The position numbers and the translations under genes were made by a program. DNA of 16,014 nucleotides from a virus (taxonomy: Duplodnaviria; Heunggongvirae; Uroviricota; Caudoviricetes). Under the pieces are notes generated by a model. That model was not told the origin of the DNA. It made no database searches and worked only from the letters and a program-made list of their open reading frames with translations. The DNA lies in the IMG/VR virus record IMGVR_UViG_2660238499_000006, positions 1 to 16,014 of that record; one strand, given 5' to 3'. Positions 1 through 16,014 of this stretch are shown piece after piece. How positions within the stretch are numbered: position 1 is the stretch's first letter; each line of letters begins with the position of its first letter.

Positions 1-297
1 GGGTGCTTAAGTTACAGGATCCTGGATTCGGGACCAGACGGTACTCAGACGACGCTTACCGCTGTCATTAAACATCACACCATTGAGGCTCTGAAGCTGT
101 TCCCGAACATTGGACAGCATTGCCGACTGTGATTTTACGGAAATAAATTCATAACCCTGATTCCGCAGGTCCTGAATCAGTTCACGTTCCAGGTCCGATT
201 CGCTCTGGTAGCTGTCGCTTGTTTGCTCAGCTTTGATGTACTTATCAAGGACGATAAAGTTATTGGATTCAGCAATGGTGTGTGTTTGATGAGTCAT
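1..297 (-). CDS. hsdR: Type I restriction endonuclease R subunit (HsdR), N-terminal ~97 codons only; gene runs off the window start
   Basis: Minus-strand ORF with ATG at 295-297 (MTHQTHTIAESNNFIVLDKYIKAEQ...), open to the window edge. Lies directly downstream of hsdM-hsdS in the order typical of plasmid-borne type IC systems. N-terminus resembles EcoR124-family HsdR from memory. Confidence 0.7.
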
Positions 298-418
298 AGC
301 GCATCCTTTGTGCCGCCTGGCAAGAGCCGGAAGGGCGTTAAGAGTGACTTCCGGCGCGTAAAAAATAGTCTATATACTGACCGGGTGTTAAGGTGGCCCG
401 ATCGGTAGCAATGGTCAA

Positions 419-1566
<1,148 letters not shown>

Positions 1567-1570
<4 letters not shown>

Positions 1571-3129
1571 TTCTGCACCTCGCAGCCTTCAATTTCAGCC
1601 ACAATCGCATCAATATCTTTACGCAACTGGTCGATTTTGCTAACCGTAGTTTTAAGCTCTGCATTTAGCTCAGCAATATTGATAATTTCGCGGTTATCTT
1701 TCGCTTCTACATAGCAGCTCACCGACAGGTTATAGTCATTAGCGACAACGGTCTCAAACGCGACAGATTTCGCCAGATGAGCAACATCTTCCTTGCTGGC
1801 AAATACCTGCATAATCTGTTCGATATGGGCATCGGTCAGGATATTGTTGTTGGTCTCTTTTTTGAATAGTTCGCTGGCATCAATAAACTGAACTTTGGTA
1901 TCCGTTTTATGTTTAGACAGCACCAGAATATTGACGGCAATAGTGGTGCCAAAGAACAGATTCGGTGCCAGTGAAATCACGGTTTCGACATAGTTATTAT
2001 CAACCAGATACTGACGGATTTTCTGCTCCGCGCCGCCACGGTAAAAAATACCCGGGAAGCAGACAATCGCAGCACGACCTTTGGCCGAAAGATAGTTCAG
2101 CGCATGTAATACAAACGCAAAGTCAGCTTTGGATTTGGGGGCCAGAACGCCAGCCGGGGCAAAACGCTCATCGTTAATCAGCGTCGGGTCATCGCTGCCA
2201 ATCCATTTCACCGAATACGGCGGGTTAGAAACGATGGCATCAAACGGTTTTTCATCTCTGAAGTGCGGTTCAGTCAGCGTATTGCCCAGCTTGATATCAA
2301 ACTTGTCGTAGTTGATGTTGTGCAAAAACATGTTCATACGTGCCAGGTTATAGGTCGTATGGTTGATTTCTTGTCCGAAAAAGCCTTCTTCAATGATATG
2401 GTTATCAAACTGCTTTTTAGCCTGCAACAACAGCGAACCGGAACCTGCGGCCGGGTCGTAGATTTTGTTAACGTGGGTCTGGCCATGCATTGCCAGTTGT
2501 GCAATCAGCTTAGAGACGTGCTGCGGTGTAAAGAACTCACCGCCTGACTTACCGGCATTTGCCGCATAGTTAGAAATCAGGAACTCATAGGCATCACCGA
2601 ACAGGTCAATCTGATGTTCGTTGAAGTCACCAAGTTTTAACCCTTCAACCCCTTTCAGAACCGCAGCCAGGCGGGCATTTTTATCTTTAACGGTGTTACC
2701 CAGGCGGTTACTGGTGGTATCGAAATCAGCAAACAAACCTTTGATGTCAGCTTCTGAAGGGTAACCGTAAGCAGAACTTTCGATAGCAACGAAGATGCTG
2801 TTTAAATCTGCATTCAGTCTGTCATTGGTATTTGCTTTCGCAGCTACGTTGCAGAAAAGCTGACTGGGGTAGATGAAGTAACCTTTGGTTTTGATGGCAT
2901 CGTCTTTAATGTCATCAGTAATTACGCTGTCATCCAGTTTCGCATAACAGATACTGTCATCACCGGCTTCAATATAGCTGGAAAAATTTTCGCTGATAAA
3001 ACGGTAGAAAAGTGCGCCCAGAACGTATTGCTTAAAATCCCATCCATCGACCGAACCCCTGACATCGTTAGCAATTTGCCAGATTTGACGATGAAGCTCT
3101 GCACGTTGTTGAATACTTGTCATTTTCAT
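1567..3129 (-). CDS. hsdM: Type I R-M N6-adenine DNA methyltransferase subunit (HsdM)
   Basis: 520-aa minus ORF with the catalytic NPPY motif (..[12 protein letters not shown]..) and an AdoMet-binding-like [11 protein letters not shown] motif. Stop overlaps the hsdS start. Confidence 0.93.
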
Positions 3130-3253
3130 CCACTTATTTCAGGCTTATGTAATTGGCGGTGATTCTACAGCAACTTGGATGCTTTAGCAGTTCGGACATT
3201 AGGCAACGAATGACCTAATTAGAGCTTTTTGGAAAAGCGGTATTGTCGGTGCG

Positions 3254-3478
3254 ATGATAGCTATGTTTGGGTGCGCGATGGTGCAATACAATGACGGTGA
3301 AAAGGTAAGCATCCAGTCTGATGGCTGGTATGGGCTGGATAGCCTGCAAAAAACCGCAGATAAAGCCTGTCAGCAATATGGAAAGTCCAAAGCTGTATAT
3401 CAGCATAGTGCGAACGCTAACCCTCATCTTACGCCCGGTTCGGGTGTTCAGAATACCATCTGGAAATGTGAGCCTTAA
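3254..3478 (+). CDS. Small hypothetical protein, tightly coupled to hot (stop 2 nt before the hot ATG); true start uncertain
   Basis: 74-aa [21 protein letters not shown]...; frame is open upstream to 3203 with a hydrophobic stretch but no ATG. Likely the P1 upf-type gene preceding hot. Confidence 0.4.
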
Positions 3479-3480
3479 AC

Positions 3481-3732
3481 ATGAGCAACTGGAACATAGC
3501 AGCTAAAAGCCAGGAAGAAAGGAATAAAGTTAACGTTGACCTGGCTGCCAGGGGGGTTGCCTACAAAGAGCGATTGAACATACCCGTCATAGCGGAACAG
3601 GTAGCCCGTGAGCAACCTGAGAACCTGCGCACCTATTTCATGGAACGGCTACGGCACTACCGGCAGTTAAGCCTCCTGCTGCCAAAAGGAAACGATCCGG
3701 TATATCAGAAAGAAGATATAGCCAAAAAATAA
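3481..3732 (+). CDS. hot: Hot, homolog of DNA polymerase III theta subunit (HolE-like)
   Basis: 83 aa containing [35 protein letters not shown], which matches the HolE/theta pattern ([20 protein letters not shown]...EQPE.LR). Sits immediately upstream of humD as in P1. Confidence 0.75.
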
Positions 3733-3792
3733 CGCGCCACCAGGCGAGCGCAAAGCATCGCGCTATTGCACACTTCAAGCATCTTTAATGTA

Positions 3793-3812
3793 TACTGTAT
3801 GGATAAACAGTA
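3793..3812 (+). promoter_or_regulatory. LexA (SOS) box upstream of humD
   Basis: tACTGTATGGATAAACAGta fits the CTGT-N8-ACAG consensus, centred about 28 bp upstream of the humD ATG. Confidence 0.7.
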
Positions 3813-3830
3813 CTCTGAGGTGAAAACGCT

Positions 3831-4220
3831 ATGGGCTTCCCTTCTCCTGCGGCGGATTATGCTGAGAGCCGTATTTCTCTTGATCAGCAGATAATTAGAC
3901 ATCCTTCAGCGACCTACTTCATGAGGGCAGCTGATAGTCATCATCGTGAGGGAATATTACAGGGTGCATTGCTGGTGGTTGATTCCTCACTTACCCCAGT
4001 TGATGGTTCTCTGCTTGTATGCGCTCTGGATGGGGAATATCGCGTAAAAAGATACCGGAAGTATCCACGTCAGCATCTGGAGGATTTAAGCACCGGGAAG
4101 AAAGAGGCGTTACCAGTAGATGACGATGGATGCACGGGCAGTAATGCTGTGTTTGGTGTGATCACTCATGTCATTAATGATGCCCGAAGTGGGGAATTTG
4201 ATGATTGTCCGGTGATTTAA
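3831..4220 (+). CDS. humD: HumD, UmuD'-like translesion-synthesis accessory protein (S24 peptidase fold)
   Basis: 129 aa, MGFPSPAADYAE... is the UmuD' N-terminal signature. SD gaggtga 8 nt upstream and a LexA box in the promoter. Confidence 0.85.
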   Translation: MGFPSPAADYAESRISLDQQIIRHPSATYFMRAADSHHREGILQGALLVVDSSLTPVDGSLLVCALDGEYRVKRYRKYPRQHLEDLSTGKKEALPVDDDGCTGSNAVFGVITHVINDARSGEFDDCPVI

Positions 4221-4255
4221 GCTGCAAAGTGCTGGTGCTTTATGCCTGTGAAGTT

Positions 4256-4283
4256 TATAATTGTGTACACATAACGAGTACAC
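4256..4283 (+). promoter_or_regulatory. phd-doc promoter -10 (TATAAT 4256-4261) followed by a palindromic candidate Phd operator (GTGTACAC 4263-4270; GTACAC 4278-4283)
   Basis: Perfect TATAAT, then the self-complementary GTGTACAC and a second GTACAC half-site immediately before the phd RBS. Confidence 0.5.
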
Positions 4284-4292
4284 GAGGTGTTT

Positions 4293-4514
4293 ATGCAATC
4301 CATTAACTTCCGTACCGCGCGCGGCAACCTTTCTGAAGTGCTCAACAATGTTGAGGCCGGGGAAGAGGTTGAAATCACCCGCAGAGGCCGTGAGCCAGCA
4401 GTAATTGTCAGCAAGGCTACTTTCGAAGCCTACAAAAAAGCGGCGCTGGATGCTGAATTTGCATCCCTGTTTGACACTCTGGACTCCACCAACAAGGAAC
4501 TGGTTAACCGATAA
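4293..4514 (+). CDS. phd: Phd antitoxin (prevent-host-death), 73 aa
   Basis: [49 protein letters not shown]... ATG at 4293 preferred over the GTG at 4287 reported in the ORF track. Stop overlaps the doc start. Confidence 0.92.
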
Positions 4515-4894
4515 TGAGGCATATATCACCGGAAGAACTTATTGCGCTTCATGATGCGAATATAAGCCGCTACGGCGGCCTGCCGGGAATGTCAGATCCG
4601 GGTAGGGCAGAGGCCATTATCGGGAGAGTTCAGGCCAGAGTTGCCTACGAAGAGATCACCGACCTTTTCGAAGTCTCCGCCACCTACCTGGTGGCTACAG
4701 CGAGAGGGCATATATTCAATGATGCCAATAAGCGTACCGCGCTAAACAGTGCGCTGCTATTTCTACGCCGTAACGGGGTGCAGGTATTTGATTCACCTGA
4801 ACTGGCAGACCTTACTGTAGGGGCTGCGACCGGAGAGATATCTGTATCTTCTGTCGCCGACACGTTACGTAGATTGTATGGTTCCGCGGAGTAG
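4514..4894 (+). CDS. doc: Doc toxin (death-on-curing; Fic-fold kinase), 126 aa
   Basis: [22 protein letters not shown]... with the Fic-type motif [14 protein letters not shown] overlap with phd. Confidence 0.92.
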
Positions 4895-4898
4895 ATTA

Positions 4899-5078
4899 AT
4901 GGCACGTAAATACAACAAGTTGTCCCGTGAAGCGTTAAAGATGCTTCTTGATGGCGTGAGTCGCCGCGAGGTAAAGCAATACCTGGTTGGTAAGCAAATT
5001 GGTGCCAGGACCGCTATTGCTGTGTTATGCCGTCAGGAAATGGTTGTGCTTAAACAGAGAATGTCGGGCAGCAGATAA
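4899..5078 (+). CDS. pdcA: PdcA (post-doc protein A), small protein; start chosen at the ATG with SD gcggag
   Basis: ORF in the P1 position after doc. ATG at 4899 (MARKYNKLSREALKMLLDG...) has a better RBS than the upstream in-frame start at 4878. Confidence 0.5.
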   Translation: MARKYNKLSREALKMLLDGVSRREVKQYLVGKQIGARTAIAVLCRQEMVVLKQRMSGSR

Positions 5079-5105
5079 AGCCCAATCAGTGATTAAAGGT
5101 GTGAT

Positions 5106-6149
5106 GTGAAAGCCGTAATTACTCCCTTTGTACAAAAAGAGCTTGGCGTCGCCACATTCAAAGTGGATCAGGAGGTCAGAAAGCTGGTGGAGGCTGGCCG
5201 TAAATTTATTATGGAGCCGGTGCCGCGTGAGTTAATCGAGCACATGGACGACGGCCTCGTTGCTTCCGAGCAAACTATAGCAACAAATGAGGCGTTGCAG
5301 CCGTTTTTTAACAGCGATGAACTGTTTCGCCGTATTGGTGGAATTGACGCGCTGGTGGCGTGGTTGCGCAGGAAAGAGGGGCAATGCCAGGCCGCAGATC
5401 GTAGCTGGTGTGACAACCATATTGTCCACGCAGAACGAGACAATAGCGCGGTGTTGTTGTGCTGGCATCACGATAACCATTACCGGATGCGTGGTTTTAA
5501 TGAGCTGAAAGAAACGCTGCATAATAATCGCGTTAACTGGATACTGGATGTCGCCCGTCAGGAAATGGGGCTTTCAGATGGCCATGATTTAAGTATTCAG
5601 GAACTGTGCTGGTGGGCTTTCATGCGCGACATGATGCACCTGATGCCGGAAGAAGTCTGCCGTATATCAATAAATAAGATTAAGGCTGCAACGCAGGATA
5701 GCGGACCTCTGAAAGAGGCGGATATTCGCCCGTATGACGATCGCGCTACAGCATATGTTCAGATGATGGAAGAACGCGCCGCGCCGATGCGTGCAAAAGT
5801 ATGCTCTGTGGATGTTGACTCCGACCCTGGCATGGCGCATTTCAAAATACCAAAACTGCAATCGCTAAAATTACCTGAGTACATGGACTTTGTTGCTTCC
5901 CGTCCATGCTGTGGGTGTGGAGCTGCGGGAGCTGGCGCTCACATTACGCCTTATATCGTTCGTCATAGTCGATTATGCGCGCATGACATTTACGCAATTC
6001 CTCTGTGCCAGTCATGCCAGCGTGATATTGAGCGTGACCGCGATAATTGGGAGAAGACGCACGGTAGGTTGGCGATGCATCAACGATTGTTCTTTGATTA
6101 CGCGCTTGGAGTGGGCGTTATCACAAGTCATTCGTCGAGTGTTAGATAA
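5106..6149 (+). CDS. pdcB: PdcB (post-doc protein B), 347 aa, Cys/His-rich C-terminus (possible HNH/zinc-binding-like module)
   Basis: GTG start with SD aaaggtg. C-terminal ...[41 protein letters not shown]... Position conserved with P1. Confidence 0.6.
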
Positions 6150-6150
6150 A

Positions 6151-6193
6151 ATTGCTCTAATGTATTGCTATTTCTTTAATCGAGGGTATTATA
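6151..6193 (+). promoter_or_regulatory. C1 operator (ATTGCTCTAATgtATTg, 6151-6167) overlapping a promoter for lpa (-35 TTGCTA 6165-6170, -10 TATTAT 6187-6192)
   Basis: 11/11 match to the ATTGCTCTAAT operator core; the promoter hexamers are read directly from the sequence. Confidence 0.65.
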
Positions 6194-6237
6194 TTCCACG
6201 TTGATTAGTTGACATGGGCTAATCAGTAGGTGACAGG

Positions 6238-6690
6238 ATGTTACTTAACTGGCAGGGACGCCACTTCATGGAAATAAATCACTCACGAATAACATCGTAC
6301 GAGATTGCGGATTACATGATCCGCACTAAATCTCTTCTATCAGCGAAAGAACTCGCAGCAATTCTTGAAAAGGAACACCCGCATCTGGATGTCGATAAGC
6401 GCGATGTTTATCTGCGCTTAAAGGCTATCGCTGTGTCTAAGTATTCGTCTGTTTTGATTGATGACAGTACACGCCCACGTAGATTTCAGATCCACTCTCT
6501 GAATCCTGAATTCTTTCGCCGTAGCCGCGCTCCGCGCCGGTTTGATGAAAAACTCCAGAATGAACTCTATATGACGCAGGACGAAAAGGAACGCCGGGAG
6601 CACCAGCCTTGGGTAATGGCGCGTCAACTTTTCAATAAGGTGGCCCGTCAGCACCGTCATTACGGTAATGCCACATCCGCACGTATCTGA
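6238..6690 (+). CDS. lpa: Lpa, late promoter activator (gp10-like)
   Basis: 150-aa basic protein immediately upstream of pacA and preceded by a C1-operator-controlled promoter. An alternative start at 6268 (MEINHSR) cannot be excluded. Confidence 0.6.
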   Translation: MLLNWQGRHFMEINHSRITSYEIADYMIRTKSLLSAKELAAILEKEHPHLDVDKRDVYLRLKAIAVSKYSSVLIDDSTRPRRFQIHSLNPEFFRRSRAPRRFDEKLQNELYMTQDEKERREHQPWVMARQLFNKVARQHRHYGNATSARI

Positions 6691-6776
6691 TTGATTGCTT
6701 GCCCGTTCCGGGCCTTTTGACATGTGACTTTCGTTACCCTCGCGTCAAAAAGAGTTTTATACGAAAGGAAGCATAA

Positions 6777-7970
6777 GTGACCTGGGACGATCACAAGAAG
6801 AATTTTGCTCGCCTGGCGCGAGATGGTGGTTACACCATCGCACAGTATGCCGCCGAGTTTAATCTTAACCCTAATACCGCACGTCGTTATCTCCGTGCCT
6901 TCAAAGAAGACACCAGGACTGCGGACAGCCGCAAGCCAAATAAGCCAGTCAGGAAGCCACTAAAAAGCATGATCATTGATCACTCTAATGATCAACATGC
7001 AGGTGATCATATTGCGGCTGAAATAGCGGAAAAACAGAGAGTTAATGCCGTTGTCAGTGCCGCAGTCGAGAATGCGAAGCGCCAAAATAAGCGCATAAAT
7101 GATCGTTCGGATGATCATGACGTGATCAACCGCGCCCACCGGACCTTACGTGATCGCCTGGAACGCGACACCCTGGATGATGATGGTGAACGCTTTGAAT
7201 TCGAAGCTGGCGATTACCTGATAGATAACGTTGAAGCGCGGAAGGCCGCGCGCGCTATGTTGCGTCGGTCCGGGGCCGATGTTCTGGAAACCACTCTTCT
7301 TGAAAAGTCTCTTTCTCATCTCCTTATGCTGGAGAACGCCAGGGATACGTGTATTCGCCTGGTGCAGGAAATGCGCGATCAGCAAAAAGACGATGATGAA
7401 GGTACTCCGCCTGAATACCGTATCGCGAGCATGCTAAACAGCTGTTCCGCGCAGATAAGCAGTCTGATCAACACCATTTACAGCATCCGGAATAACTATC
7501 GAAAAGAAAGCCGGGAGGCGGAAAAGCACGCTTTGTCTATGGGGCAAGCTGGCATTGTTAAGCTGGCATACGAACGAAAGCGTGAAAATAACTGGTCAGT
7601 GCTGGAAGCGGCTGAATTCATCGAGGCGCATGGAGGAAAAGTGCCGCCCCTGATGCTGGAGCAAATCAAAGCCGATCTGCGTGCTCCTAAGACCAATACC
7701 GATGATGAGGAAAACCAAACAGCATCTGGCGCTCCATCACTTGAAGATCTGGATAAAATCGCGCGAGAACGGGCCGCCAGCCGCCGCGCTGATGCGGCAT
7801 TGTGGATTGAGCATCGTAGAGAAGAAATTGCCGATATCGTCGATACAGGTGGTTATGGTGATGTCGATGCGGAAGGCATATCAAACGAAGCATGGCTTGA
7901 ACAGGATCTGGACGAAGACGAGGAGGAAGACGAAGAAGTCACCCGCAAGCTATACGGGGATGATGATTAA
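6777..7970 (+). CDS. pacA: PacA, packaging (pacase) subunit; contains the pac site and an acidic C-terminal tail
   Basis: 397 aa; GTG start with SD aaggaag. pac hexamer clusters lie inside the ORF. C-terminus ...[19 protein letters not shown] overlap with pacB. Confidence 0.85.
6970..7128. other. P1-type pac site: four TGATCA hexamers (6970, 6977, 6989, 7004) and three TGATC(G/A) hexamers (7100, 7112, 7123) flanking the cleavage region; an extra TGATCG at 7151
   Basis: Seven hexamers in a 4+3 arrangement over about 160 bp, each carrying a Dam GATC site, matching the described organisation of the P1 pac site. Confidence 0.85.
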
Positions 7971-9454
7971 TGGCCAGAAGTTGCGTAACGGATCCACGTT
8001 GGCGCGAGCTGGTGGCGCTATATCGTTATGACTGGATTGCGGCCGCTGATGTTTTGTTCGGCAAAACACCTACCTGGCAGCAGGATCTGATTATTGAGTC
8101 TGTGCAGGAACAGGGTAGCAAGACATCTGTTTCGTCTGGTCACGGTACCGGGAAATCAGACATGACTTCTATCATGATCATGTTGTTCATAATCATGTAT
8201 CCCGGTGCCCGCGCCATTATCGTTGCGAACAAAATTCAGCAGGTAATGACCGGTATTTTCAAGTACATCAAGATAAACTGGGCTACTGCCACCAGCCGTT
8301 TTCCATGGCTTGCTGATTATTTTGTTCTGACAGAAACCGCTTTCTATGAGGTTACTGGTAAAGGTGTATGGACTGTAGTACCGAAGGGCTTTCGTCTGGG
8401 AAGTGAAGAAGCTCTCGCCGGTGAACACGCAGATCATCTTCTGTATATTATCGATGAAGCCTCCGGTGTCAGTGATAGAGCTTTCGGTATCATCACCGGT
8501 GCTCTTACCGGACAGGATAACCGCATCTTATTGCTGTCACAGCCTACACGCCCAAGCGGCTATTTCTACGATACACACCATAAACTGGCCAAGCGTCCTG
8601 GTAACCCTGATGGCGTTTATACGGCGATCACGCTTAACAGTGAGGAATCACCGTTGGTAACGCCAGCATTTATCAAAATGAAGCTGGCGGAGTACGGCGG
8701 GCGTGATAACCCTATGTACATGATTAAGGTACGCGGCCTATTCCCTAAATCACAGGATGGCTTCCTTCTTGGACGTGATGAGGTTGAACGTGCAACGCGG
8801 CGGAAAGTCAAGATTGCAAAAGGATGGGGCTGGCTTGCATGTGTGGACGTTGCTGGTGGTACGGGACGGGATAAGTCCGTTATCAATATCATGATGGTGT
8901 CCGGCCAGCGAAATAAACGCCGTGTAATCAACTATCGAATGCTGGAATACACAGACGTTACAGAAACGCAGCTTGCCGCCAAAATTTTCGCAGAATGTAA
9001 TCCTGAGCGATTCCCAAATATCACCATAGCGATAGATGGCGATGGCCTGGGTAAAGCAACGGCGGATCTGATGTACGAGTATTATGGTATTACCGTACAG
9101 CGTATACGCTGGGGTAAAAAGATGCATAGCCGTGAAGATAAGAGCCTGTACTTTGATAAACGTGCTTATGCCAACGTTCAAGCCGCAGAGGCCGTAAAAT
9201 CTGGTCGTATGAGACTGGATAAGGGTAATGAAACTATTGAGGAAGCGTCGAAAATCCCTGTAGGGATTAACTCCGCAGGTCAATGGAAGGTGATGAGTAA
9301 GGAGGATATGAAGAAAAAACTCAACCTGCACTCACCAGACCATTGGGATACATATTGTTTCGCTATGCTGGCGGATTATGTTCCTCAGGATGAAGTGCTT
9401 AGCGTCGAAGACGAAGCGCAGGTTGATGAAGCTCTGGCATGGCTTAATGAATAA
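7970..9454 (+). CDS. pacB: PacB, packaging (pacase/terminase-like) large subunit
   Basis: 494 aa, translationally coupled to pacA. Contains a Walker-A-like [10 protein letters not shown] motif and an acidic region. Confidence 0.85.
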
Positions 9455-9457
9455 ATA

Positions 9458-9474
9458 TTTGCTCTAATAAATTG
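9458..9474 (+). promoter_or_regulatory. C1 operator (tTTGCTCTAATAAATTg) immediately after the pacB stop
   Basis: 16/17 match to the ATTGCTCTAATAAATTT consensus. Confidence 0.7.
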
Positions 9475-9605
9475 TGTTTTTTAACTACCGATGTTACATT
9501 GAACCTGACCTCTTGCGCCTTGAGGCATTTTCGGTTTATGCTTATCAGGCACCTCAGTAAAACGGGTGCCGGGATTGAGACCCCGGATAATGCAAAAGGC
9601 GACAC

Positions 9606-9629
9606 AGACGCCAAAAGCGTCTTTTTTTG
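9606..9629 (+). terminator. Rho-independent terminator (stem agacgc/gcgtct, loop caaaa, T7)
   Basis: GC-containing hairpin followed by TTTTTTT on the plus strand, about 150 nt after pacB. Confidence 0.6.
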
Positions 9630-9813
9630 TGTCATGCCATCGCACAGCCATACGTAGCGTTTAGCTCAGAGATCAATGGTAGTGCTGGCTGGGCTGCCGA
9701 AAGGCAGGCCGGTTCCCTTTTGCGCCGGTAGTCTCAACCCAGTCAGTGCTACCGCCATTGAGATTGAGACCTCACGCGGTAGCTCCTTAAATTAGCAAAA
9801 GGAGGCTGCCATT

Positions 9814-10035
9814 GTGGCTACTATCCCTACCCCTGCTCATCCTGAATTTATCTGGCGCTTTTACTCCTGCCAAAAACGTCACTATCACTTCGTTATTGCA
9901 CCGACAGAAGATGAGGCACGTTCTCAGCTTCCGGATGCTCCCTGTATTTTCTCTGCCCGCTTTTCTACCGATTCGCGCAATTCTCTCAGTTACTGGTGCC
10001 TCCCTGTTAACGCTTCTGCTCAGGAGGGACTATGA
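9814..10035 (+). CDS. Icd-like small protein (candidate host cell-division inhibitor), 73 aa
   Basis: GTG start 8 nt after GGAGG. PEFIWRF...PTEDEARSQL...IFSARF fits the Icd-like F.WRF / TE.EAR pattern as I recall it. Its TGA stop overlaps the ATG of the next ORF (ATGA). Confidence 0.45.
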   Translation: MATIPTPAHPEFIWRFYSCQKRHYHFVIAPTEDEARSQLPDAPCIFSARFSTDSRNSLSYWCLPVNASAQEGL

Positions 10036-10214
10036 GAACGTCATTAGTCACCCGTGAAGAGATGATCGAGGCAATTGAACAGCACACTGCCTGTATCAGT
10101 ACCAGGGATATACCGGGCGTTATTGCCAACTACTTCATTCATGATCACCAAACAACTTTACCGGAGAAAGGACAAACACGCGGTTCACCGCATTCTGCTA
10201 ACCGATATCCGTGA
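10032..10214 (+). CDS. 60-aa ORF translationally coupled to the icd-like gene; possibly the N-terminal remnant of a frame-disrupted Ant1-like start
   Basis: ATG overlaps the upstream stop (ctATGA). The ORF ends at 10214 while the ant frame (+1) is open across the same region. Confidence 0.3.
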   Translation: MRTSLVTREEMIEAIEQHTACISTRDIPGVIANYFIHDHQTTLPEKGQTRGSPHSANRYP

Positions 10215-10284
10215 ATACCTGCTCGAACAGGGTCATCTGAATTACGCAACCGTCGCAGCCGAAGCACGCAAGGAGGCACACAGA

Positions 10285-11148
10285 ATGAAAGCAACTAACG
10301 TTAAATCAGAAAAAATTTATGCACCTTCAGTTCAGGAATCGGAACTGGTGGTTGTTCAGAATCAGCCGGATGAAATTCCCGTTCTGGAATGGCAGGGAGT
10401 ACGTGTCGTGACAACCGAAACTCTTGCTAGAGGGTATGGGGTCGATGAAGCCAATATTCGCAACAATTTGTCTCGCAACCTTGACCGCTTTGAAGAAGGT
10501 AAGCATTACTTTCTTCTAACTGGTTTAAAATTAAGAGAATTTAAGAACAGAGTAACCGGAAGTTACTCTGTTGGTAAGAACGCCAGAAGCCTTACACTCT
10601 GGACAGAGCGCGGCGCTGCACGCATGTCTAAGATCGTGGACACAAATGAAGCGTGGGCATTCTTTGAAAAACTGGAAGACAGCTACTTCCGACAAAAAGA
10701 ACAGCAACCGATCGCAATCCCCCAGACGCTTCCAGAAGCTCTGCGCCTGGCTGCCGAACTGGCTGAACAAAAGCAGCTTCTGGAACAGAAAGCCCACCAG
10801 CTAAATCAGCAGCTGGTGGCCGCCGCTCCTAAAGTCGATTTTGCCGACCGGGTATCAGTAGCTAAAGGGATCCTGATTGGGAATTTTGCAAAGGTTGTTG
10901 GACTTAAGCAAAACGCGCTGTTTGCCTGGTTACGGGAGAACGGCATCCTGATAGCGTCCGGTGGACGTAAAAATGTGCCGTTCCAGCAGTACATCAATGC
11001 GGGGTATTTCACGGTGAAAGAAGTGATGCTGGATGATGAAGATGGCTACCAGATACGGTTGACGCCTCAATTAACGGGTAAAGGCCAGCAGTGGTTGACG
11101 CGTAAACTGCTCGATGCTGGCTTGTTAAAACCGGTGGCGGCTGAATAA
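10285..11148 (+). CDS. Phage antirepressor-like protein (N-terminal ORF6N/Bro-N-like, C-terminal KilAC/Ant-C-like), Ant2-sized (287 aa)
   Basis: Strong SD AGGAGG 8 nt before the ATG at 10285. ...PVLEWQGVRVVTTETLARGYGVDEANIRNNL... and C-terminal ...FADRVSVAKGILIGNFAKVVGLKQNALFAWLRENGILIASGG...YINAGYFTVKEV... are antirepressor-type domain patterns. The frame stays open upstream to 10066. Confidence 0.6.
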   Translation: MKATNVKSEKIYAPSVQESELVVVQNQPDEIPVLEWQGVRVVTTETLARGYGVDEANIRNNLSRNLDRFEEGKHYFLLTGLKLREFKNRVTGSYSVGKNARSLTLWTERGAARMSKIVDTNEAWAFFEKLEDSYFRQKEQQPIAIPQTLPEALRLAAELAEQKQLLEQKAHQLNQQLVAAAPKVDFADRVSVAKGILIGNFAKVVGLKQNALFAWLRENGILIASGGRKNVPFQQYINAGYFTVKEVMLDDEDGYQIRLTPQLTGKGQQWLTRKLLDAGLLKPVAAE

Positions 11149-11155
11149 TGGAAGA

Positions 11156-11177
11156 ATGCCCGGTTGATGCCGGGCAT
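11156..11177. terminator. Hairpin (atgcccgg/ccgggcat) between the convergent ant-like and c1 genes; candidate bidirectional terminator
   Basis: 8-bp stem lying between the ant-like stop (11146-11148) and the c1 stop (11181-11183), with T-rich flanks on both strands. Confidence 0.4.
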
Positions 11178-11180
11178 AAT

Positions 11181-12032
11181 TTATTGCGCGCTTTCGGGGT
11201 TGTCGTTTACTGGCTGCCCCTTCTTGGTTTTACGGCTGCGCGTAACTGATGCGGCTGACTTAACCTTTTTCTCTTCGCGAGTGATGGCAATTTGTTTTTT
11301 TACATTTTCAATATCTGCCAGGCGATATATTTTTGCTTGCGGCCAGCGGTCGCAGATGATCGGTTCTATGGAGTCATAAAGGCTAAATTTTGCTTTTTCG
11401 AATTCACCGTTGATGATAATTCCATCACGGAGAGTTTCATCGCAGATAAACACGCCACACAGTGGCACATGGTAACTAACTGATTTACCATCATTGTAGT
11501 TAGGGCTACTGGAAATGTAGTGGACGCGCAGCATTGTTTCGCTAAAGCCGTGTACGCGCATACGGAATTTTTCATCCTCCGGGTACTGCCTCATTAGCTC
11601 TTTTGTTGCTTCCAGGTTCTCTATGTATTTCGCACTGTGCTCATTGATCCCCGCGCTTTTTTGGATGCGAATGTCCTTATCAATCAGATGAATAATGCGG
11701 CCAGCGGTCATGTTGACGCTGTTCACAGCTTCTGTCTGATAAGTTGTAACCTTGCGCACACCGCGAAGGATGTTAGGCACTGGATATAAAATAGTCTTTG
11801 GGATATTGAGGTCTGGGTACTGTTCCAGTTCCCGCGCCATTAAAGTCCATTTATCAATTTCAGCCTGAATGCTGTCCGTTTCTTTGAACGGTAGAACGAC
11901 AACCGGGCGTACAGGACGACCGTCGCTGGCGGTATCAACGTGTTGGGCGCGTGCAACAGCTTTTTTTAGAAAGAGATCCCTGAAGCTGACGAACTCCTGG
12001 TACAGTTGTTCGCCGTAGACATAATTTATCAT
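11181..12032 (-). CDS. c1: C1 repressor of lysis (primary immunity repressor), 283 aa
   Basis: MINYVYGEQLYQEFVSFRDLFLKK...; length, position next to coi/loxP and the surrounding operators all match P1 C1. Confidence 0.92.
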   Translation of the reverse strand: MINYVYGEQLYQEFVSFRDLFLKKAVARAQHVDTASDGRPVRPVVVLPFKETDSIQAEIDKWTLMARELEQYPDLNIPKTILYPVPNILRGVRKVTTYQTEAVNSVNMTAGRIIHLIDKDIRIQKSAGINEHSAKYIENLEATKELMRQYPEDEKFRMRVHGFSETMLRVHYISSSPNYNDGKSVSYHVPLCGVFICDETLRDGIIINGEFEKAKFSLYDSIEPIICDRWPQAKIYRLADIENVKKQIAITREEKKVKSAASVTRSRKTKKGQPVNDNPESAQ

Positions 12033-12126
12033 TGATCCTCCTCCAGAATTGACATGGTCAATAACGCCCGGCTGAGAAAACCGGTCATTACTGACCTATA
12101 TTATAGAGGGATCAAACAAAAATAAT

Positions 12127-12143
12127 AGATTTATTAGTGCATT
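12127..12143 (-). promoter_or_regulatory. C1 operator (reverse orientation, about 14/17) between coi and c1
   Basis: agATTTATTAGtGCAtT compared with AAATTTATTAGAGCAAT. Confidence 0.5.
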
Positions 12144-12352
12144 TATTGTGAGTCTAACTGGTTAGTTGCCATGAGATATTCGATTGTGTCAGTGAGGTCA
12201 TCCAGGTCGTCTTGGGTGATGCGGTACTCCTGATTGGATATCTTTGAGTAGTGTTCAGCAATGGCGCGGGCAGCGTCGGTTTCGGCAGGGTCTACAGATA
12301 AAGCGTTAGAGCAATGTCTAACGTCGTCGATGGTTGGTTGAATGAAAGCCAT
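12143..12352 (-). CDS. coi: Coi, C1 inactivator, 69 aa
   Basis: 69-aa acidic ORF (MAFIQPTIDDVRH...) directly upstream of c1 on the same strand, with SD GAGG 7 nt before the ATG. Confidence 0.8.
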   Translation of the reverse strand: MAFIQPTIDDVRHCSNALSVDPAETDAARAIAEHYSKISNQEYRITQDDLDDLTDTIEYLMATNQLDSQ

Positions 12353-12590
12353 AATTATGCCTCACTGTATTGACAACACAGAGCCTGAAGCTCTGACCTA
12401 CTGTTTCACCCATGATCCATGCTGGGGTAATCTAACAACATTGCGCTGTGTGTAAGATGAGCAATGCATAGCTGTAATGCCGTTGTATAAGGTTTCCCTG
12501 TTTGCTCATTTCCTTCTGAGCCGCTCTACAACGCTGAAGACACATTAAATAGTGAATCCAAAGTCGTATTACGTAACGGCGGCAAAACTA

Positions 12591-12607
12591 TAATTTATTA
12601 GAGCAAT
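12591..12607 (-). promoter_or_regulatory. C1 operator (reverse orientation, 16/17), overlapped by a minus-strand TTGACA (12609-12614) and a plus-strand TATAAT (12589-12594)
   Basis: tAATTTATTAGAGCAAT. Candidate immC promoter/operator driving coi-c1. Confidence 0.7.
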
Positions 12608-12673
12608 TGTCAAACAACTATGAAAAACAATCCAGTTTTTAGCTGGTGGAGTGGGATTTTTCTCTCAAAATTT

Positions 12674-12690
12674 ATTGCTCTAATAATTCT
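12674..12690 (+). promoter_or_regulatory. C1 operator (ATTGCTCTAATAATTCT, 14/17)
   Basis: Direct match to the operator core, 44 bp left of loxP. Confidence 0.65.
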
Positions 12691-12733
12691 TGATTTTTGT
12701 GCGCAGCTGGACGTAAACTCCTCTTCGGACCTA

Positions 12734-12767
12734 ATAACTTCGTATAGCATACATTATACGAAGTTAT
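12734..12767. other. loxP site (ATAACTTCGTATA-GCATACAT-TATACGAAGTTAT)
   Basis: Exact 34-bp canonical loxP: two 13-bp inverted arms around the asymmetric 8-bp spacer. Confidence 0.98.
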
Positions 12768-12786
12768 ATTAAGGGTTATTGAATAT

Positions 12787-12859
12787 GATCAATTTACCTG
12801 TAAATCCATACAGTTCAATACCTTGGCAGGTCAAATAGTGATCACTTGATCATTTGATC
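12787..12859. promoter_or_regulatory. Cluster of four Dam GATC sites in the cra/cre upstream region (candidate methylation-sensitive promoter)
   Basis: GATC at 12787, 12840, 12848 and 12856; three lie within 20 bp (gtGATCacttGATCatttGATCaagg). Confidence 0.5.
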
Positions 12860-12956
12860 AAGGTTGCGCTACGTAAAATCTGTGAAAAATTGGCGGTGTC
12901 AGTCCTACAGATTTCGCGTAGCGCACTTAGCACCACCAATCAATCAGAGGTGAAAA

Positions 12957-13178
12957 ATGGGATATTCAGCTGCTAAAGTGTCCACTCATCTTGAGCTTGA
13001 GAAAAATCGTGGTTACTGGCGGGCAAAAGGGTTTGATCGTGATAGTTGTCAACTGTCATTATCGCGCGGTGAAGAAAAGATAGAACGCAGTCGCGGTCGT
13101 TGGCGTTTCTATGACGAGAACCATAAACAGGTAAAGGCAGAGCCGATCCTGTACACTTTACTTAAAACCATTATCTGA
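12957..13178 (+). CDS. cra: Cra (cre-associated small protein)
   Basis: 73-aa ORF with SD gaggtg, immediately upstream of cre as in P1. Confidence 0.65.
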   Translation: MGYSAAKVSTHLELEKNRGYWRAKGFDRDSCQLSLSRGEEKIERSRGRWRFYDENHKQVKAEPILYTLLKTII

Positions 13179-13185
13179 GTGTTAA

Positions 13186-14217
13186 ATGTCCAATTTACTG
13201 ACCGTACACCAAAATTTGCCTGCATTGCCGGTCGATGCAACGAGTGATGAGGTTCGCAAGAACCTGATGGACATGTTCAGGGATCGCCAGGCGTTTTCTG
13301 AGCATACCTGGAAAATGCTTCTGTCCGTTTGCCGGTCATGGGCGGCATGGTGCAAGTTGAATAACCGGAAATGGTTTCCCGCAGAACCTGAAGATGTTCG
13401 CGATTATCTTCTATATCTTCAGGCGCGCGGTCTGGCAGTGAAAACTATCCAGCAACATTTGGGCCAGCTAAATATGCTTCATCGTCGGTCCGGGCTGCAA
13501 CGACCAAGTGACAGCAATGCTGTTTCACTCGTCATGCGACGGATCCGAAAAGAAAACGTTGATGCCGGTGAGCGTGCAAAACAGGCGCTGGCGTTCGAAC
13601 GCACTGATTTCGACCAGGTTCGTTCACTCATGGAAAATAGCGATCGCTGCCAGGATATACGTAATCTGGCATTTCTGGGGATTGCTTATAACACCCTGTT
13701 ACGTATAGCCGAAATTTCTAGGATCAGAGTTAAAGATATCTCACGTACTGACGGTGGGAGAATGTTAATCCATATTGGCAGAACGAAAACGCTGGTTAGC
13801 ACCGCTGGTGTAGAGAAGGCACTTAGTCTGGGGGTAACTAAACTGGTTGAGCGATGGATTTCTGTCTCTGGTGTGGCTGATGATCCGAATAACTACTTGT
13901 TTTGCCGTGTCAGAAAAAATGGTGTTGCCGCGCCATCTGCCACCAGCCAGCTATCAACTCGCGCCCTGGAAGGGATTTTTGAAGCAACTCACCGATTGAT
14001 TTTCGGGGCTAAGGATGACTCTGGCCAGAGGTACCTGGCCTGGTCTGGACACAGTGCCCGTGTCGGAGCCGCGCGAGATATGGCCCGCGCCGGAGTTTCA
14101 ATACCGGAGATCATGCAAGCTGGTGGCTGGACCAACGTAAATATTGTCATGAACTATATCCGTAACCTGGATAGTGAAACAGGGGCAATGGTGCGCCTGC
14201 TGGAAGATGGCTATTAG
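13186..14217 (+). CDS. cre: Cre site-specific tyrosine recombinase, 343 aa
   Basis: MSNLLTVHQNLPALPVDATSDEVRKNLMDMFRDRQAFSEHTWKMLLSVCRSWAAWCKLNNRKWFPAEPEDVRDYLLYLQARGLAVKTIQQHLGQLNMLHRRSGL...; start lies 436 bp from the loxP centre, as in P1 numbering. Confidence 0.98.
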   Translation: MSNLLTVHQNLPALPVDATSDEVRKNLMDMFRDRQAFSEHTWKMLLSVCRSWAAWCKLNNRKWFPAEPEDVRDYLLYLQARGLAVKTIQQHLGQLNMLHRRSGLQRPSDSNAVSLVMRRIRKENVDAGERAKQALAFERTDFDQVRSLMENSDRCQDIRNLAFLGIAYNTLLRIAEISRIRVKDISRTDGGRMLIHIGRTKTLVSTAGVEKALSLGVTKLVERWISVSGVADDPNNYLFCRVRKNGVAAPSATSQLSTRALEGIFEATHRLIFGAKDDSGQRYLAWSGHSARVGAARDMARAGVSIPEIMQAGGWTNVNIVMNYIRNLDSETGAMVRLLEDGY

Positions 14218-14234
14218 CCATTAGCGCGCAAATG

Positions 14235-14251
14235 ATTGCTCTAATTCTTTG
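14235..14251 (+). promoter_or_regulatory. C1 operator (ATTGCTCTAATTCTTTG) just after the cre stop
   Basis: 11/11 core match. Confidence 0.6.
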
Positions 14252-14267
14252 GTATTTATGGTGACAT

Positions 14268-14579
14268 GTGAGAAAGGATTTCAACATCGACGGAAAATAT
14301 GTAGTGCTGTCTGTAAGCACTAATATTCAGTCGCCAGCCGTCATTGTCACTGTAAAGCTGAGCGATAGAATGCCTGATATTGACTCAATATCCGTTGCGT
14401 TCCCTGTCAAAAGTATGCGTAGTGCTGAACATTTCGTGATGAATGCCACCGAGAAAGAAGCACGGCGCGGTTTTGCCAAAGTGATGGCCGAGTTTGGCGA
14501 ATTTTTGGGGCACGTTGACAAAGCCCTTTCAATCAGTTCAGCAAGGTCCAAAGCGTTAACAGCTTCCATGCTGAAATAA
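14268..14579 (+). CDS. Hypothetical protein in the c8 position between cre and ref; weak start (GTG, no clear SD)
   Basis: 103-aa ORF. The coding call is uncertain because the adjacent terminator belongs to the opposite strand and the start context is poor. Confidence 0.3.
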   Translation: MRKDFNIDGKYVVLSVSTNIQSPAVIVTVKLSDRMPDIDSISVAFPVKSMRSAEHFVMNATEKEARRGFAKVMAEFGEFLGHVDKALSISSARSKALTASMLK

Positions 14580-14604
14580 AAAAAGCCTGGCAAGGAGCCA
14601 GGCT
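14574..14604 (-). terminator. Strong rho-independent terminator for a leftward (minus-strand) transcript
   Basis: 8-bp perfect stem agcctggc/gccaggct with loop aagga; on the minus strand it is followed by TTTTTTTATTT. Confidence 0.65.
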
Positions 14605-14709
14605 GCACAAAAGAGCGGGTTTGTATTCCGCATTCAATCAATCAAGAAGGAGTATAGTACACAGGTACTGAAGTGAAAAAATGTGATTCGCGATAAACAA
14701 ATAACTTTA

Positions 14710-14739
14710 ATTGCTCTAATTGATTGCTATAATTGAGCC
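14710..14739 (+). promoter_or_regulatory. Two overlapping C1 operators (ATTGCTCTAATTGATTG 14710-14726; ATTGCTATAATTGAGCC 14723-14739) with an embedded perfect -10 TATAAT (14728-14733)
   Basis: Operator cores and the -10 hexamer are read directly; the arrangement resembles the tandem C1 operators reported upstream of ref in P1. Confidence 0.65.
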
Positions 14740-14793
14740 GCAGTTTTTGTCAACTACGAAGACGTTGCCATTACTTCACTCCTTGACATCATT

Positions 14794-14819
14794 GGCGGCC
14801 ATTAGGCCGCCTTTTTTTT
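14794..14819 (+). terminator. Strong rho-independent terminator/attenuator ending 5 nt before the ref ATG
   Basis: 7-bp GC stem ggcggcc/ggccgcc, loop atta, followed by T8. Confidence 0.7.
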
Positions 14820-14824
14820 GCCAT

Positions 14825-15262
14825 ATGAAAACAATCGAACAAAAACTTGAACAGCGCCGCGAGTGGCAGAAGGCAGCCAGAGAACGAGCGATCGATCGGC
14901 AACGGGAAAAGTTGGCTGACCCCGCCTGGCGAGAATCGCAATATCAGAAAATGCGGGATTCTATCGACCGCCGTATCGCTAAACAGAAAGAGCGCCCACC
15001 AGCCAGCAAAACGCGGAAAAGTGCGGTAAAAATAAAATCTCGTGGCTTGAAGGGGCGAACACCGACGGCGGAGGAACGGACCATCGCCAATGCTCTTGGC
15101 ACTCTCCCCTGCATTGCCTGCTACATGCATGGAGTAATATCTGAAGAGGTGTCTCTGCACCATATCTCCGGTCGTACCGCGCCGGGTTGTCACAAAAAGC
15201 AATTGCCCCTTTGTAGATGGCACCACCAGCATGCAGCACCGGCTGAAGTAAGAGGGGTTTGA
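14825..15262 (+). pseudogene. ref: ref (recombination enhancement function, HNH-type nuclease), 3'-truncated by a Tn3-family insertion; the last codons and the stop come from the transposon inverted repeat
   Basis: MKTIEQKLEQRREWQKAARERAIDRQREK... with a Cys/His cluster (CIACYMHGVISEEVSLHHISGRTAPGCHKKQLPLCRWHH). The ORF is 145 aa against the 186 aa I recall for P1 Ref, and the frame runs into the IR starting at 15254. Confidence 0.6.
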
Positions 15263-15291
15263 GGGCCAATGATGTAAAAAACCACGCTAAG
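15254..15291. repeat. Tn3-family 38-bp terminal inverted repeat (GGGGTTTGAGGGCCAATGATGTAAAAAACCACGCTAAG)
   Basis: GGGG...ACGCTAAG architecture; the first 18 bp match the gamma-delta/Tn1000-type IR as I recall it. The tnpA stop codon (15287-15289) lies inside it, as is typical of Tn3-family elements. Confidence 0.8.
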
Positions 15292-15956
15292 GAGGTAATT
15301 CATTGTTTAAATTGAGATTTAACGGCCTCAATTCCCCCTTCATAATATCCTCCGGTAGTGTGAACGTATAATGTCCCAGCATGTTGATATGACCATGCAT
15401 CAGAGGCGAAAGCCGCGCGATATGTTCATCTTCTGGCCCTTCCCCAGTGCTACGCAGGTGCGACAAGGCTTCCTGCATATAAAGCGTATTCCACAGCACC
15501 ACTGCGTTTGTCACCAGACCCAGCGCACCCAACTGATCTTCCTGCCCCTCGCGGTAACGTTTTCTGATCTCACCACGCTGACCGTAGCAAATGGCTCTTG
15601 CCACGGCATGGCGACCTTCGCCCCGGTTAAGCTGTGTTAGGATCCTGCGGCGATAGTCCTCATCATCAATATAGTTGAGAAGATACAGTGTCTTGTTAAC
15701 TCTTCCGACCTCCATTATTGCCTGAGCAAGCCCTGACGGTCGGGTACTTCTCAATAGCGATCGAATGAGTTCTGACGCATGAATTGTGCCCAGCTTCAGC
15801 GAACCTGCAACCCGCATCATCTCATCCCAGTGGCTTTCGATTTTAGAAAGGTCAACACAACCCCGAGCCAGTTCGTCCAACGCCCCGTAATTCGCTGCTT
15901 TGTCAGCCCGCCAGAACACCGCCTCACCAGCATCCGCCAGACGAGGTGAAAATTGG
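15287..15956 (-). pseudogene. tnpA: Tn3-family transposase (TnpA), C-terminal ~220 codons only; 5' part removed by IS26
   Basis: Translation ...IESHWDEMMRVAGSLKLGTIHASELIRSL...LNYIDDEDYRRRILTQLNRGEG...LGLVTNAVVLWNTLYMQEAL...HINMLGHYTF matches the conserved Tn3-family TnpA C-terminus. The frame is cut at the IS26 boundary, with an in-frame stop inside IS26. Confidence 0.8.
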
Positions 15957-16014
15957 GGCACTGTTGCAAATAGTCGGTGGTGATAAACTTATCATCCCCT
16001 TTTGCTGATGGAGC
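15957..16014 (+). mobile_element. IS26 left end (IRL GGCACTGTTGCAAA plus 44 bp of leader), continuing beyond the window
   Basis: GGCACTGTTGCAAATAGTCGGTGGTGATAAACTTATCATCCCCTTTTGCTGATGGAGC matches the IS26 IRL and tnp26 upstream sequence from memory. Confidence 0.85.

Follow-up and report, generated by a model that had tools for sequence, protein, structure and literature searches.

What occupies the space between the terminase gene pacB and the master repressor gene c1 in a P1-like phage-plasmid whose two genes lie far apart? The question is raised by a stretch of 16,014 nt, positions 1 to 16,014 of the IMG/VR virus record IMGVR_UViG_2660238499_000006 (the whole stretch is here referred to as the window), which belongs to a P1-like phage-plasmid (Punavirus). 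In P1, the textbook example of such an element, the immunity circuit has three parts, immC, immI and immT. A first inspection of the letters alone (the sequence-only reading) had proposed that an immI-like antirepressor cassette, either second or relocated, is inserted between pacB and c1. Our analysis leads to the conclusion that positions 9455-11180 likely form a complete second operon of the immI type, a paralogue of the canonical immI of P1, whose elements follow each other in the order C1 operator, promoters, a1b1 leader, c4, a2b2, icd and ant1/2.

The pacB-c1 junction

The two genes that delimit the segment, like the other flanking genes, were named from DNA identities of 88-99% to P1, P7, SJ46, RCS47 and JL22 and from the annotations of these phages:

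7970-9454, plus strand: pacB (terminase B), the left flank of the module, matching the annotated pacB of RCS47, JL22 and P1
11181-12032, minus strand: c1, the master repressor gene and right flank, matching the annotated c1 of P1, RCS47 and SJ46

pacB ends at 9454 and c1 at 11181, so that 1,726 bp lie between them (9455-11180). In P1 (NC_005856) the corresponding ends are at 93206 and 93231, which leaves a spacer of 24 bp. The spacer of SJ46, whose flanks are 98% identical to those of the window, is also 24 bp long. The 1,726 bp thus stand in place of the spacer CTCATTGACCATGCCGGATAGAAAC, exactly between the stop codons of pacB and c1. An inserted cassette of about 1.7 kb was what the sequence-only reading had proposed, and its interpretation as a whole is supported: the P1 interval is of another length and content, and the similarity to Icd and Ant and to the ORF6N and KilAC families is clear. 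As to its single observations, the gap, the operator, the terminator, Icd and the short form of Ant were all recovered, while the open long form of about 372 aa was not.

The C4 antisense RNA and its targets

The evidence that carries this conclusion begins with three RNA elements upstream of the protein-coding genes:

9549-9628, plus strand: leader RNA of the a1b1/isrK type, with two hairpins, a1, b1 and an intrinsic terminator
9672-9759, plus strand: gene of a C4-type antisense RNA (Rfam RF01695, 75 bits against a gathering score of 45)
9764-9805, plus strand: C4 target sites in the icd leader, a2 TTGAGAC at 9764-9770 and b2 GCAAAAGG at 9795-9802

The leader matches the isrK family of Rfam (RF01394) over 9549-9627, with 58.2 bits against a gathering score of 50. 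In the predicted fold, a1 (TTGAGAC, 9575-9581) lies in the loop of the second hairpin and b1 (GCAAAAGG, 9592-9599) is single-stranded. The terminator scan places an intrinsic terminator at the end of the leader (9606-9622), followed by seven T residues (U7 in the RNA). A terminator in the cassette had been noticed before; its assignment is corrected here, since it belongs to the leader RNA, which is also present in P1 immI. The canonical leader of P1 has, in the equivalent place, matches to c4-a1b1 (51 bits) and isrK (35 bits, below threshold) together with a terminator-like hairpin, and we therefore regard the element as the a1b1 leader of an immI operon.

Downstream of the terminator, the sequence-only reading had seen a structured non-coding stretch of about 170 nt. 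The structure is there, but the stretch is the c4 gene itself and not a leader. The predicted C4 fold has a minimum free energy of -46.4 kcal/mol (z = -5.6), with the b' loop CCUUUUGC at 9716-9723 and a' (GUCUCAA) at 9731-9737. Across five alleles its helices are 100% paired and nine pairs show compensatory changes, a value that none of 500 shuffles reached; when the registers are slid, the covariation collapses. The a' and b' segments are exactly complementary both to a1/b1, 5' of c4, and to a2/b2, 3' of it, and b2 overlaps the Shine-Dalgarno sequence of icd (AAGGAGG, 9799-9805).

Several open reading frames (ORFs) have been or could be called over these elements. Three small ones (9444-9635 on the minus strand, 9472-9657 and 9812-10057 on the plus strand) have no Pfam match and overlap the RNA elements, and they were treated as spurious. 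In RefSeq, the Prokaryotic Genome Annotation Pipeline (PGAP) places a coding sequence for a 39-aa 'ash family protein' on c4 (9676-9795 of the window, equal to 1877-1996 of locus L006). Its translation has no NCBIfam match, and we treated it as a mis-called RNA gene; the mistake looks systematic, with c4 annotated as protein-coding in hundreds of P1-like plasmids.

Recognition alleles

We then compared the recognition sequences a and b of this module (the locus is here referred to as immI-2) with those of the canonical loci and of D6:

immI-2 allele A (this window, JL22 and D6 locus A): a TTGAGAC, b GCAAAAGG
immI-2 allele B (RCS47): a TTGAGAC, b GTCAAAGG
immI-2 allele C (IMG/VR L029): a TTGGAAC, b GCAAAAGG
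immI-2 allele D (673R5): a TTGGCCT (a1) and TTGGTCT (a2), b GTCTAAGG
canonical allele of P1: a TTGACAG, b GTTAGTG
canonical allele of P7: a TTAGCAG, b GATTGTG
canonical allele of JL22: a TTGACAG, b GATTGTG
locus B allele of D6: a TTGACAG, b ACTTACG

None of the four alleles at the pacB-c1 locus equals the canonical alleles of P1, P7 or D6. C4 and both copies of its target change together in these four as well as in the four canonical or D6 alleles, and cognate C4 and target pair at 15 of 15 positions in every allele. This co-variation of the C4 loops with both target copies argues that the antisense lock of the module works and is probably orthogonal to that of canonical immI. Cross-pairing covers 8-10 of the 15 positions when the C4 of the window meets canonical targets and 7-9 in the reverse combination; between P1 and P7 it is higher (12 of 15). 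P1 and P7 are reported to be heteroimmune, by minor differences in immI (PMC6906374). At such low cross-pairing, the module should probably act as a second lock independent of the canonical one. The same is expected from its a/b code (TTGAGAC and GCAAAAGG), which differs from every canonical allele. The idea of a hetero-immune circuit in the sequence-only reading is thus supported at the RNA level, where the recognition sequences of the module's C4 lie further from each canonical allele than those of P1 do from those of P7.

C1 operator and candidate promoters

The region upstream of the leader contains one operator and two candidate promoters:

9458-9474, plus strand: C1 operator (Oc4/Op51-like), TTTGCTCTAATAAATTG, with two mismatches to the 17-bp consensus ATTGCTCTAATAAATTT
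9472-9500, plus strand: putative C1-controlled promoter (P51a/P2c4-like), -35 element TTGTGT at 9472-9477, a 17-nt spacer and -10 element TACATT at 9495-9500
9513-9542, plus strand: putative operator-distal promoter (P51b/P1c4-like), TTGCGC, 18 nt and TATGCT, proposed from its position

The operator agrees with the consensus at 15 of 17 positions, is identical in JL22, RCS47 and 673R5, and has the orientation and the placement relative to c4 of Oc4 in P1; the C1 operator announced earlier for the cassette is thereby located. Sites with at most three mismatches number six in the window, against an expectation of 0.07. The first promoter, whose -35 element TTGTGT overlaps the operator, was placed by analogy with the annotated P2c4 of P1 and stays putative. 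The candidate start of the second, at about 9549, coincides with position 1 of the isrK model. Its region is invariant in the four aligned phages, and D6 locus A has TTGCGC-N17-TATATT in the equivalent place.

The five other operator-like sites, with one to three mismatches, are at 6151-6167, 12127-12143, 12591-12607, 12674-12690 and 14710-14726. The first lies upstream of lpa, and those within 12127-12690 are counterparts of P1 Oc1a/b, Oc1d and Oc1e around c1, coi and cre. Further genes of the flanks are:

6777-7970: pacA
12143-12352, minus strand: coi, with cra/cre further on

icd and the antirepressor gene

The protein-coding part of the module and its distal end contain the following features:

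9814-10035, plus strand: icd-like gene, 73 aa, GTG start, its stop overlapping the ATG of ant1 (ATGA, 10032-10035)
10032-10214, plus strand: 5' part of ant1, frameshifted, with a 60-aa product and a tandem duplication of TTCA at 10134-10141
10285-11148, plus strand: ant2-like antirepressor ORF, 287 aa, with its own Shine-Dalgarno sequence AAGGAGG at 10270-10276, an ORF6N centre and a KilAC C-terminus
11156-11177, no strand: GC-rich hairpin ATGCCCGGTTGATGCCGGGCAT between the convergent ant and c1, found by the terminator scan and probably a bidirectional terminator for both

The 73-aa ORF had been called Icd-like from its letters alone, and so it proved: its product is 81% identical to P1 Icd and matches phage_ICD_like of NCBIfam (NF033153) with 49.8 bits. 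The antirepressor pair of about 372 and 287 aa foreseen with it was borne out for the short form only. The 287-aa product has the Pfam domains ORF6N (PF10543; 66.7 bits, 2.3e-18) and ANT/KilAC (PF03374; 108.7 bits, 2.4e-31), it shares 76% identity with P1 Ant over the C-terminal 177 aa, and the context of its internal start, 'RKEAHRM', is conserved with P1 Ant2. The long form is broken by the TTCA duplication: the stretch 10032-11148 measures 1,117 nt, and the frame opened by the ATG at 10032 stops at 10214. Nested ant1 and ant2 are therefore not both intact in the window.

What the long form looks like elsewhere can be seen in phage JL22, whose Ant1 matches the first 34 aa of the window Ant1 and has an N-terminal extension homologous to that of P1 Ant1. 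The full-length JL22 protein (370 aa) is 57% identical to P1 Ant1 from end to end; its Ant1-specific N-terminus is homologous, and in the KilAC C-terminus the identity is about 90%. Ant1 is intact, at 364-372 aa, in 17 of the 20 complete comparator modules. With the window these make 21 modules, of which the window alone has the TTCA duplication. When positions 9300-11300 were searched against PLSDB and the complete E. coli genomes, no record was more than 99.3% identical, and the best matches were all 4 bp shorter. The duplication could be either a real private mutation or an error of sequencing or assembly. A programmed frameshift at this point was rejected, all relatives being without the 4 bp, and an N-truncated Ant1 starting at the in-frame ATG at 10141 is unlikely: although the frame is open in form, this ATG has no Shine-Dalgarno sequence in front of it.

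The central domain of Ant (10380-10660 of the window) is hypervariable. At least five variants were found, shuffled relative to the c4 alleles. On either side of them, the N-terminus is conserved and the KilAC C-terminus hardly varies. The shuffling of ORF6N variants points to modular recombination or diversifying selection.

A second copy and its distribution

The same segment is present in the phages JL22 (99% identical), RCS47 and vB_EcoM-673R5, and each of them also holds the canonical locus, (sim)-c4-icd-ant1/2-kilA-repL. The module is at a non-canonical map position, between pacB and c1 and not in the series sim, immI, kilA/repL. As these three phages keep their canonical immI, a relocated module was rejected, and the choice left by the sequence-only reading between second and relocated is decided for second.

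Among 5,426 complete E. coli genomes, 286 junctions were occupied and 310 were empty as in P1. PLSDB contained 299 plasmids with an occupied junction, including plasmids of Salmonella, Klebsiella, Shigella, E. albertii and E. fergusonii, and IMG/VR gave 32 further loci. The arrangement is thus not the peculiarity of one lineage, as had been suggested, but one of two about equally common alleles of the pacB-c1 junction. One IMG/VR locus (L025, IMGVR_UViG_2698536372_000019) showed two pattern matches 1,566 nt apart. A tandem duplication was rejected there, the same allele occurring twice with an N at the junction, and the double copy is most likely an artefact of assembly or circularisation.

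Origin of the module

The module is a mosaic. Its operator and first promoter region resemble Oc4/P51a of P1; the leader, c4 and the 5' part of icd are 87-95% identical in DNA to D6 locus A; the ORF6N part is about 70% like Roi/Ant genes of lambdoid Shiga toxin (Stx) phages; and the KilAC part shares 86% identity with P1 ant. At its junctions we found no target-site duplication, terminal inverted repeat, insertion sequence (IS) end or transposase, and an origin by a transposon or IS was rejected on these grounds. Two weak repeats, D3 and I7, look like chance.

The occupied junction might also be the ancestral one, the 24-bp spacer of P1 being a deletion and the module no insertion at all. We give this a little less than an even chance. 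The near equality of occupied and empty junctions (286 and 310) and the lack of any such mark at the ends of the segment speak for it, and by eye the P1 spacer TTGACCATGCCGGATAGAA is loosely like the distal half of the ant/c1 terminator TTGATGCCGGGCATAA. This resemblance, however, is short and not clean, and a mosaic of D6 locus A and P1 ant parts fits an acquisition by recombination equally well.

Related sequences occur outside the phage-plasmids as well. More than 300 Stx-type phages have matches of about 70% to the leader/c4/icd-like part and to the ORF6N ant, located by genes annotated 'antitermination' or 'antB/Roi', which suggests that a cassette of isrK, C4, small ORF and antirepressor is widespread beyond phage-plasmids. 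In D6 a third C4-like match (L007, 3116-3195; 40 bits against the gathering score of 45) lies about 550 nt upstream of the c4 of locus A and may be a degenerate extra copy.

Proposed mechanism

For P1 immI itself, the details used below (RNase P processing, Rho polarity and P51a/b) are those annotated for P1 in GenBank or belong to the background on its immunity. In a lysogen, C1 bound at 9458-9474 would shut the operator-overlapping promoter, and the weaker promoter downstream would go on transcribing from about 9549, supplying a constitutive low level of C4. Some transcripts would end at the terminator (9606-9628) and give a short RNA that displays a1 and b1. Those that read through would be processed to a C4 RNA of about 77-88 nt, whose a' and b' loops would pair with a2 and b2 and so cover the ribosome-binding site of icd. 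Both Icd and Ant would then be off, because ant1 is translationally coupled to icd by the ATGA overlap and because of polarity. An operon entering a cell without cognate C4 would make Icd and Ant, and Ant, judged by its homology, would inactivate C1 and favour lytic growth. By analogy with IsrK of Gifsy-1, the short terminated a1b1 RNA might serve as a decoy for C4, which is speculative. In the window itself at most Ant2 would be made, so that the antirepressor half is possibly weakened and the C4 immunity half intact.

Weighing the evidence

What the sequence shows directly is the homology of every part, the RNA structure and the complementarity with its covariation. Several points weigh against the view of a complete and working second operon. 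First, a strict consensus promoter scan called neither of the two proposed promoters; we infer these, as well as RNA processing, binding of Ant to C1 and orthogonality in vivo, from sequence. Second, 'second' is deduced for this element from relatives that are 99% identical, its own canonical region lying beyond the 16-kb window. Third, P1 Ant has no ORF6N, and its own centre is unrelated to the ORF6N centre of this Ant. Fourth, Ant has been described as a heterodimeric complex of Ant1 and Ant2 (PMC8546580); with ant1 frameshifted, antirepression may be reduced or lost in this element. Fifth, ant is also broken in relatives. In 673R5 (L002) and L020 a frameshift, possibly the same lesion, lies in ORF6N; in L041 a foreign, IS-like sequence is inserted just after the ant1 start; and in phi456 (L012) an IS1-associated deletion from pdcB into ant has removed most of the module. 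In these damaged modules c4 and its targets are mostly retained.

The last two points are also what favours a module that serves, in this element, for defence only or is decaying, with its C4 immunity against modules of the same type kept and its antirepressor inactivated by the truncation of Ant1 to 60 aa. In the plasmid state, losing ant in this way may be favoured by selection. The lesions of 673R5, L020 and L041, which leave c4 and its targets intact, and the deletion of phi456 fit this view. Yet Ant2 is intact behind a strong Shine-Dalgarno sequence, full-length Ant1 is the rule among the comparators, and the 4-bp change, shared by no database record, is possibly recent or an error. We therefore hold this explanation only tentatively, as having about one chance in three.

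It is unlikely that the ORF6N-KilAC protein is directed not at the C1 of its own phage but at the repressor of other mobile elements, or that it acts as a Roi/Rha-like DNA-binding regulator (the module would then act mainly in cross-induction of other elements or in another function): although its unrelated and shuffled ORF6N centre, the related segments adjoining Q-type antiterminators in Stx and Gifsy-type prophages (PMC4825925) and the database label 'Roi' would suit such a role, the Ant1-specific N-terminus and the KilAC C-terminus are homologous to P1 Ant1/2, and the operon has a C1 operator and adjoins c1.

The reading of 9455-11180 as a second immI-type operon is therefore preferred. 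It is conceivable, but we would not yet count on it, that natural P1-like phage-plasmids run two orthogonal C4 locks whose codes diversify independently and form a combinatorial code of immunity and anti-immunity. If so, whether co-infecting P1-like elements, many of them with antibiotic-resistance genes, can induce or exclude each other would depend on this code, and the recurrent loss of ant with c4 kept, as in this window, would turn the module into a pure defence device.

Prior record and significance

Parts of the module have been recorded before. The GenBank record of RCS47 annotates 'ant' at this locus, PGAP annotates 'Icd-like' and 'KilAC antirepressor', and Venturini et al. (2019) mention the insertion in one sentence, naming RCS47 (PMC6906374). 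A full-text search, which left most subscription journals outside its reach, found no account of it as a complete immI paralogue with C4 specificities of its own. The module is thus a common, partly annotated paralogue of a well-understood operon, all its parts are of known kinds, and the finding refines known biology and adds no new kind of system.

The reference strain on which the immunity circuit of P1 was worked out has no such module; in complete E. coli genomes, roughly one P1-like element in two has it. Should the module function as its anatomy suggests, natural P1-like plasmids would depart from the reference model in their lysis-lysogeny decision, in heteroimmunity and in cross-induction, and many of them carry extended-spectrum beta-lactamase (ESBL) or mcr genes. 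In addition, the co-varying a/b alleles form a ready set of orthogonal pairs of RNA regulator and target.

Comparison with known systems

The closest system is immI of P1 and P7. All parts are found in the same order, with the C1 operator in the same place, an a1b1-type leader with a terminator-like hairpin, a C4 of the same Rfam family, b2 over the icd Shine-Dalgarno sequence, the ATGA overlap of icd and ant1, and a nested in-frame ant2 start; Icd (81%) and the KilAC C-terminus (about 90%) are close in sequence. The differences concern the position (canonical immI lies between sim and kilA-repL, the module between pacB and c1), the a/b code, the leader, which in the module is above threshold as isrK and not as c4-a1b1, the centre of Ant, which is ORF6N instead of the P1-specific segment, and the frameshift of ant1 in the window.

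D6 locus A (orf83/orf82, at about 75 kb) shares the a/b code and, at 87-95% DNA identity, the leader, c4 and the 5' part of icd. D6-like plasmid prophages have two c4-icd regions per genome (PMC6799933). In contrast to the module, the antirepressor of locus A is of the Rha/helix-turn-helix type and not ORF6N-KilAC, the 200 nt upstream of it showed no C1 operator, and the context is ref ... pmgF and not pacB/c1.

The satellite phage P4 (CI RNA, seqA/seqC) likewise has a processed antisense RNA with targets up- and downstream in its own transcript, but the outcome there is premature termination of transcription of the replication genes, and there is no icd/ant cargo. IsrK has been described as a structural homologue of P4 seqA (PMC4825925). 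The isrK-orf45-anrP locus of Salmonella Gifsy-1 (IsrK small RNA; STnc1160) likewise begins with a promoter-proximal RNA of the IsrK family, which has its own terminator and read-through; an RNA processed from further downstream is complementary to IsrK, and a small ORF is translationally coupled to the antirepressor-like gene that follows it. The locus takes part in prophage induction (PMC4825925). It differs in that the short IsrK activates translation in trans, with the antiterminator AntQ as output; this activation of the RNA's own read-through mRNA and the binding of Hfq are known for Gifsy-1 only (PMC4825925). For the module described here, the logic of P1, in which C4 represses, is better supported than trans-activation of the IsrK kind.

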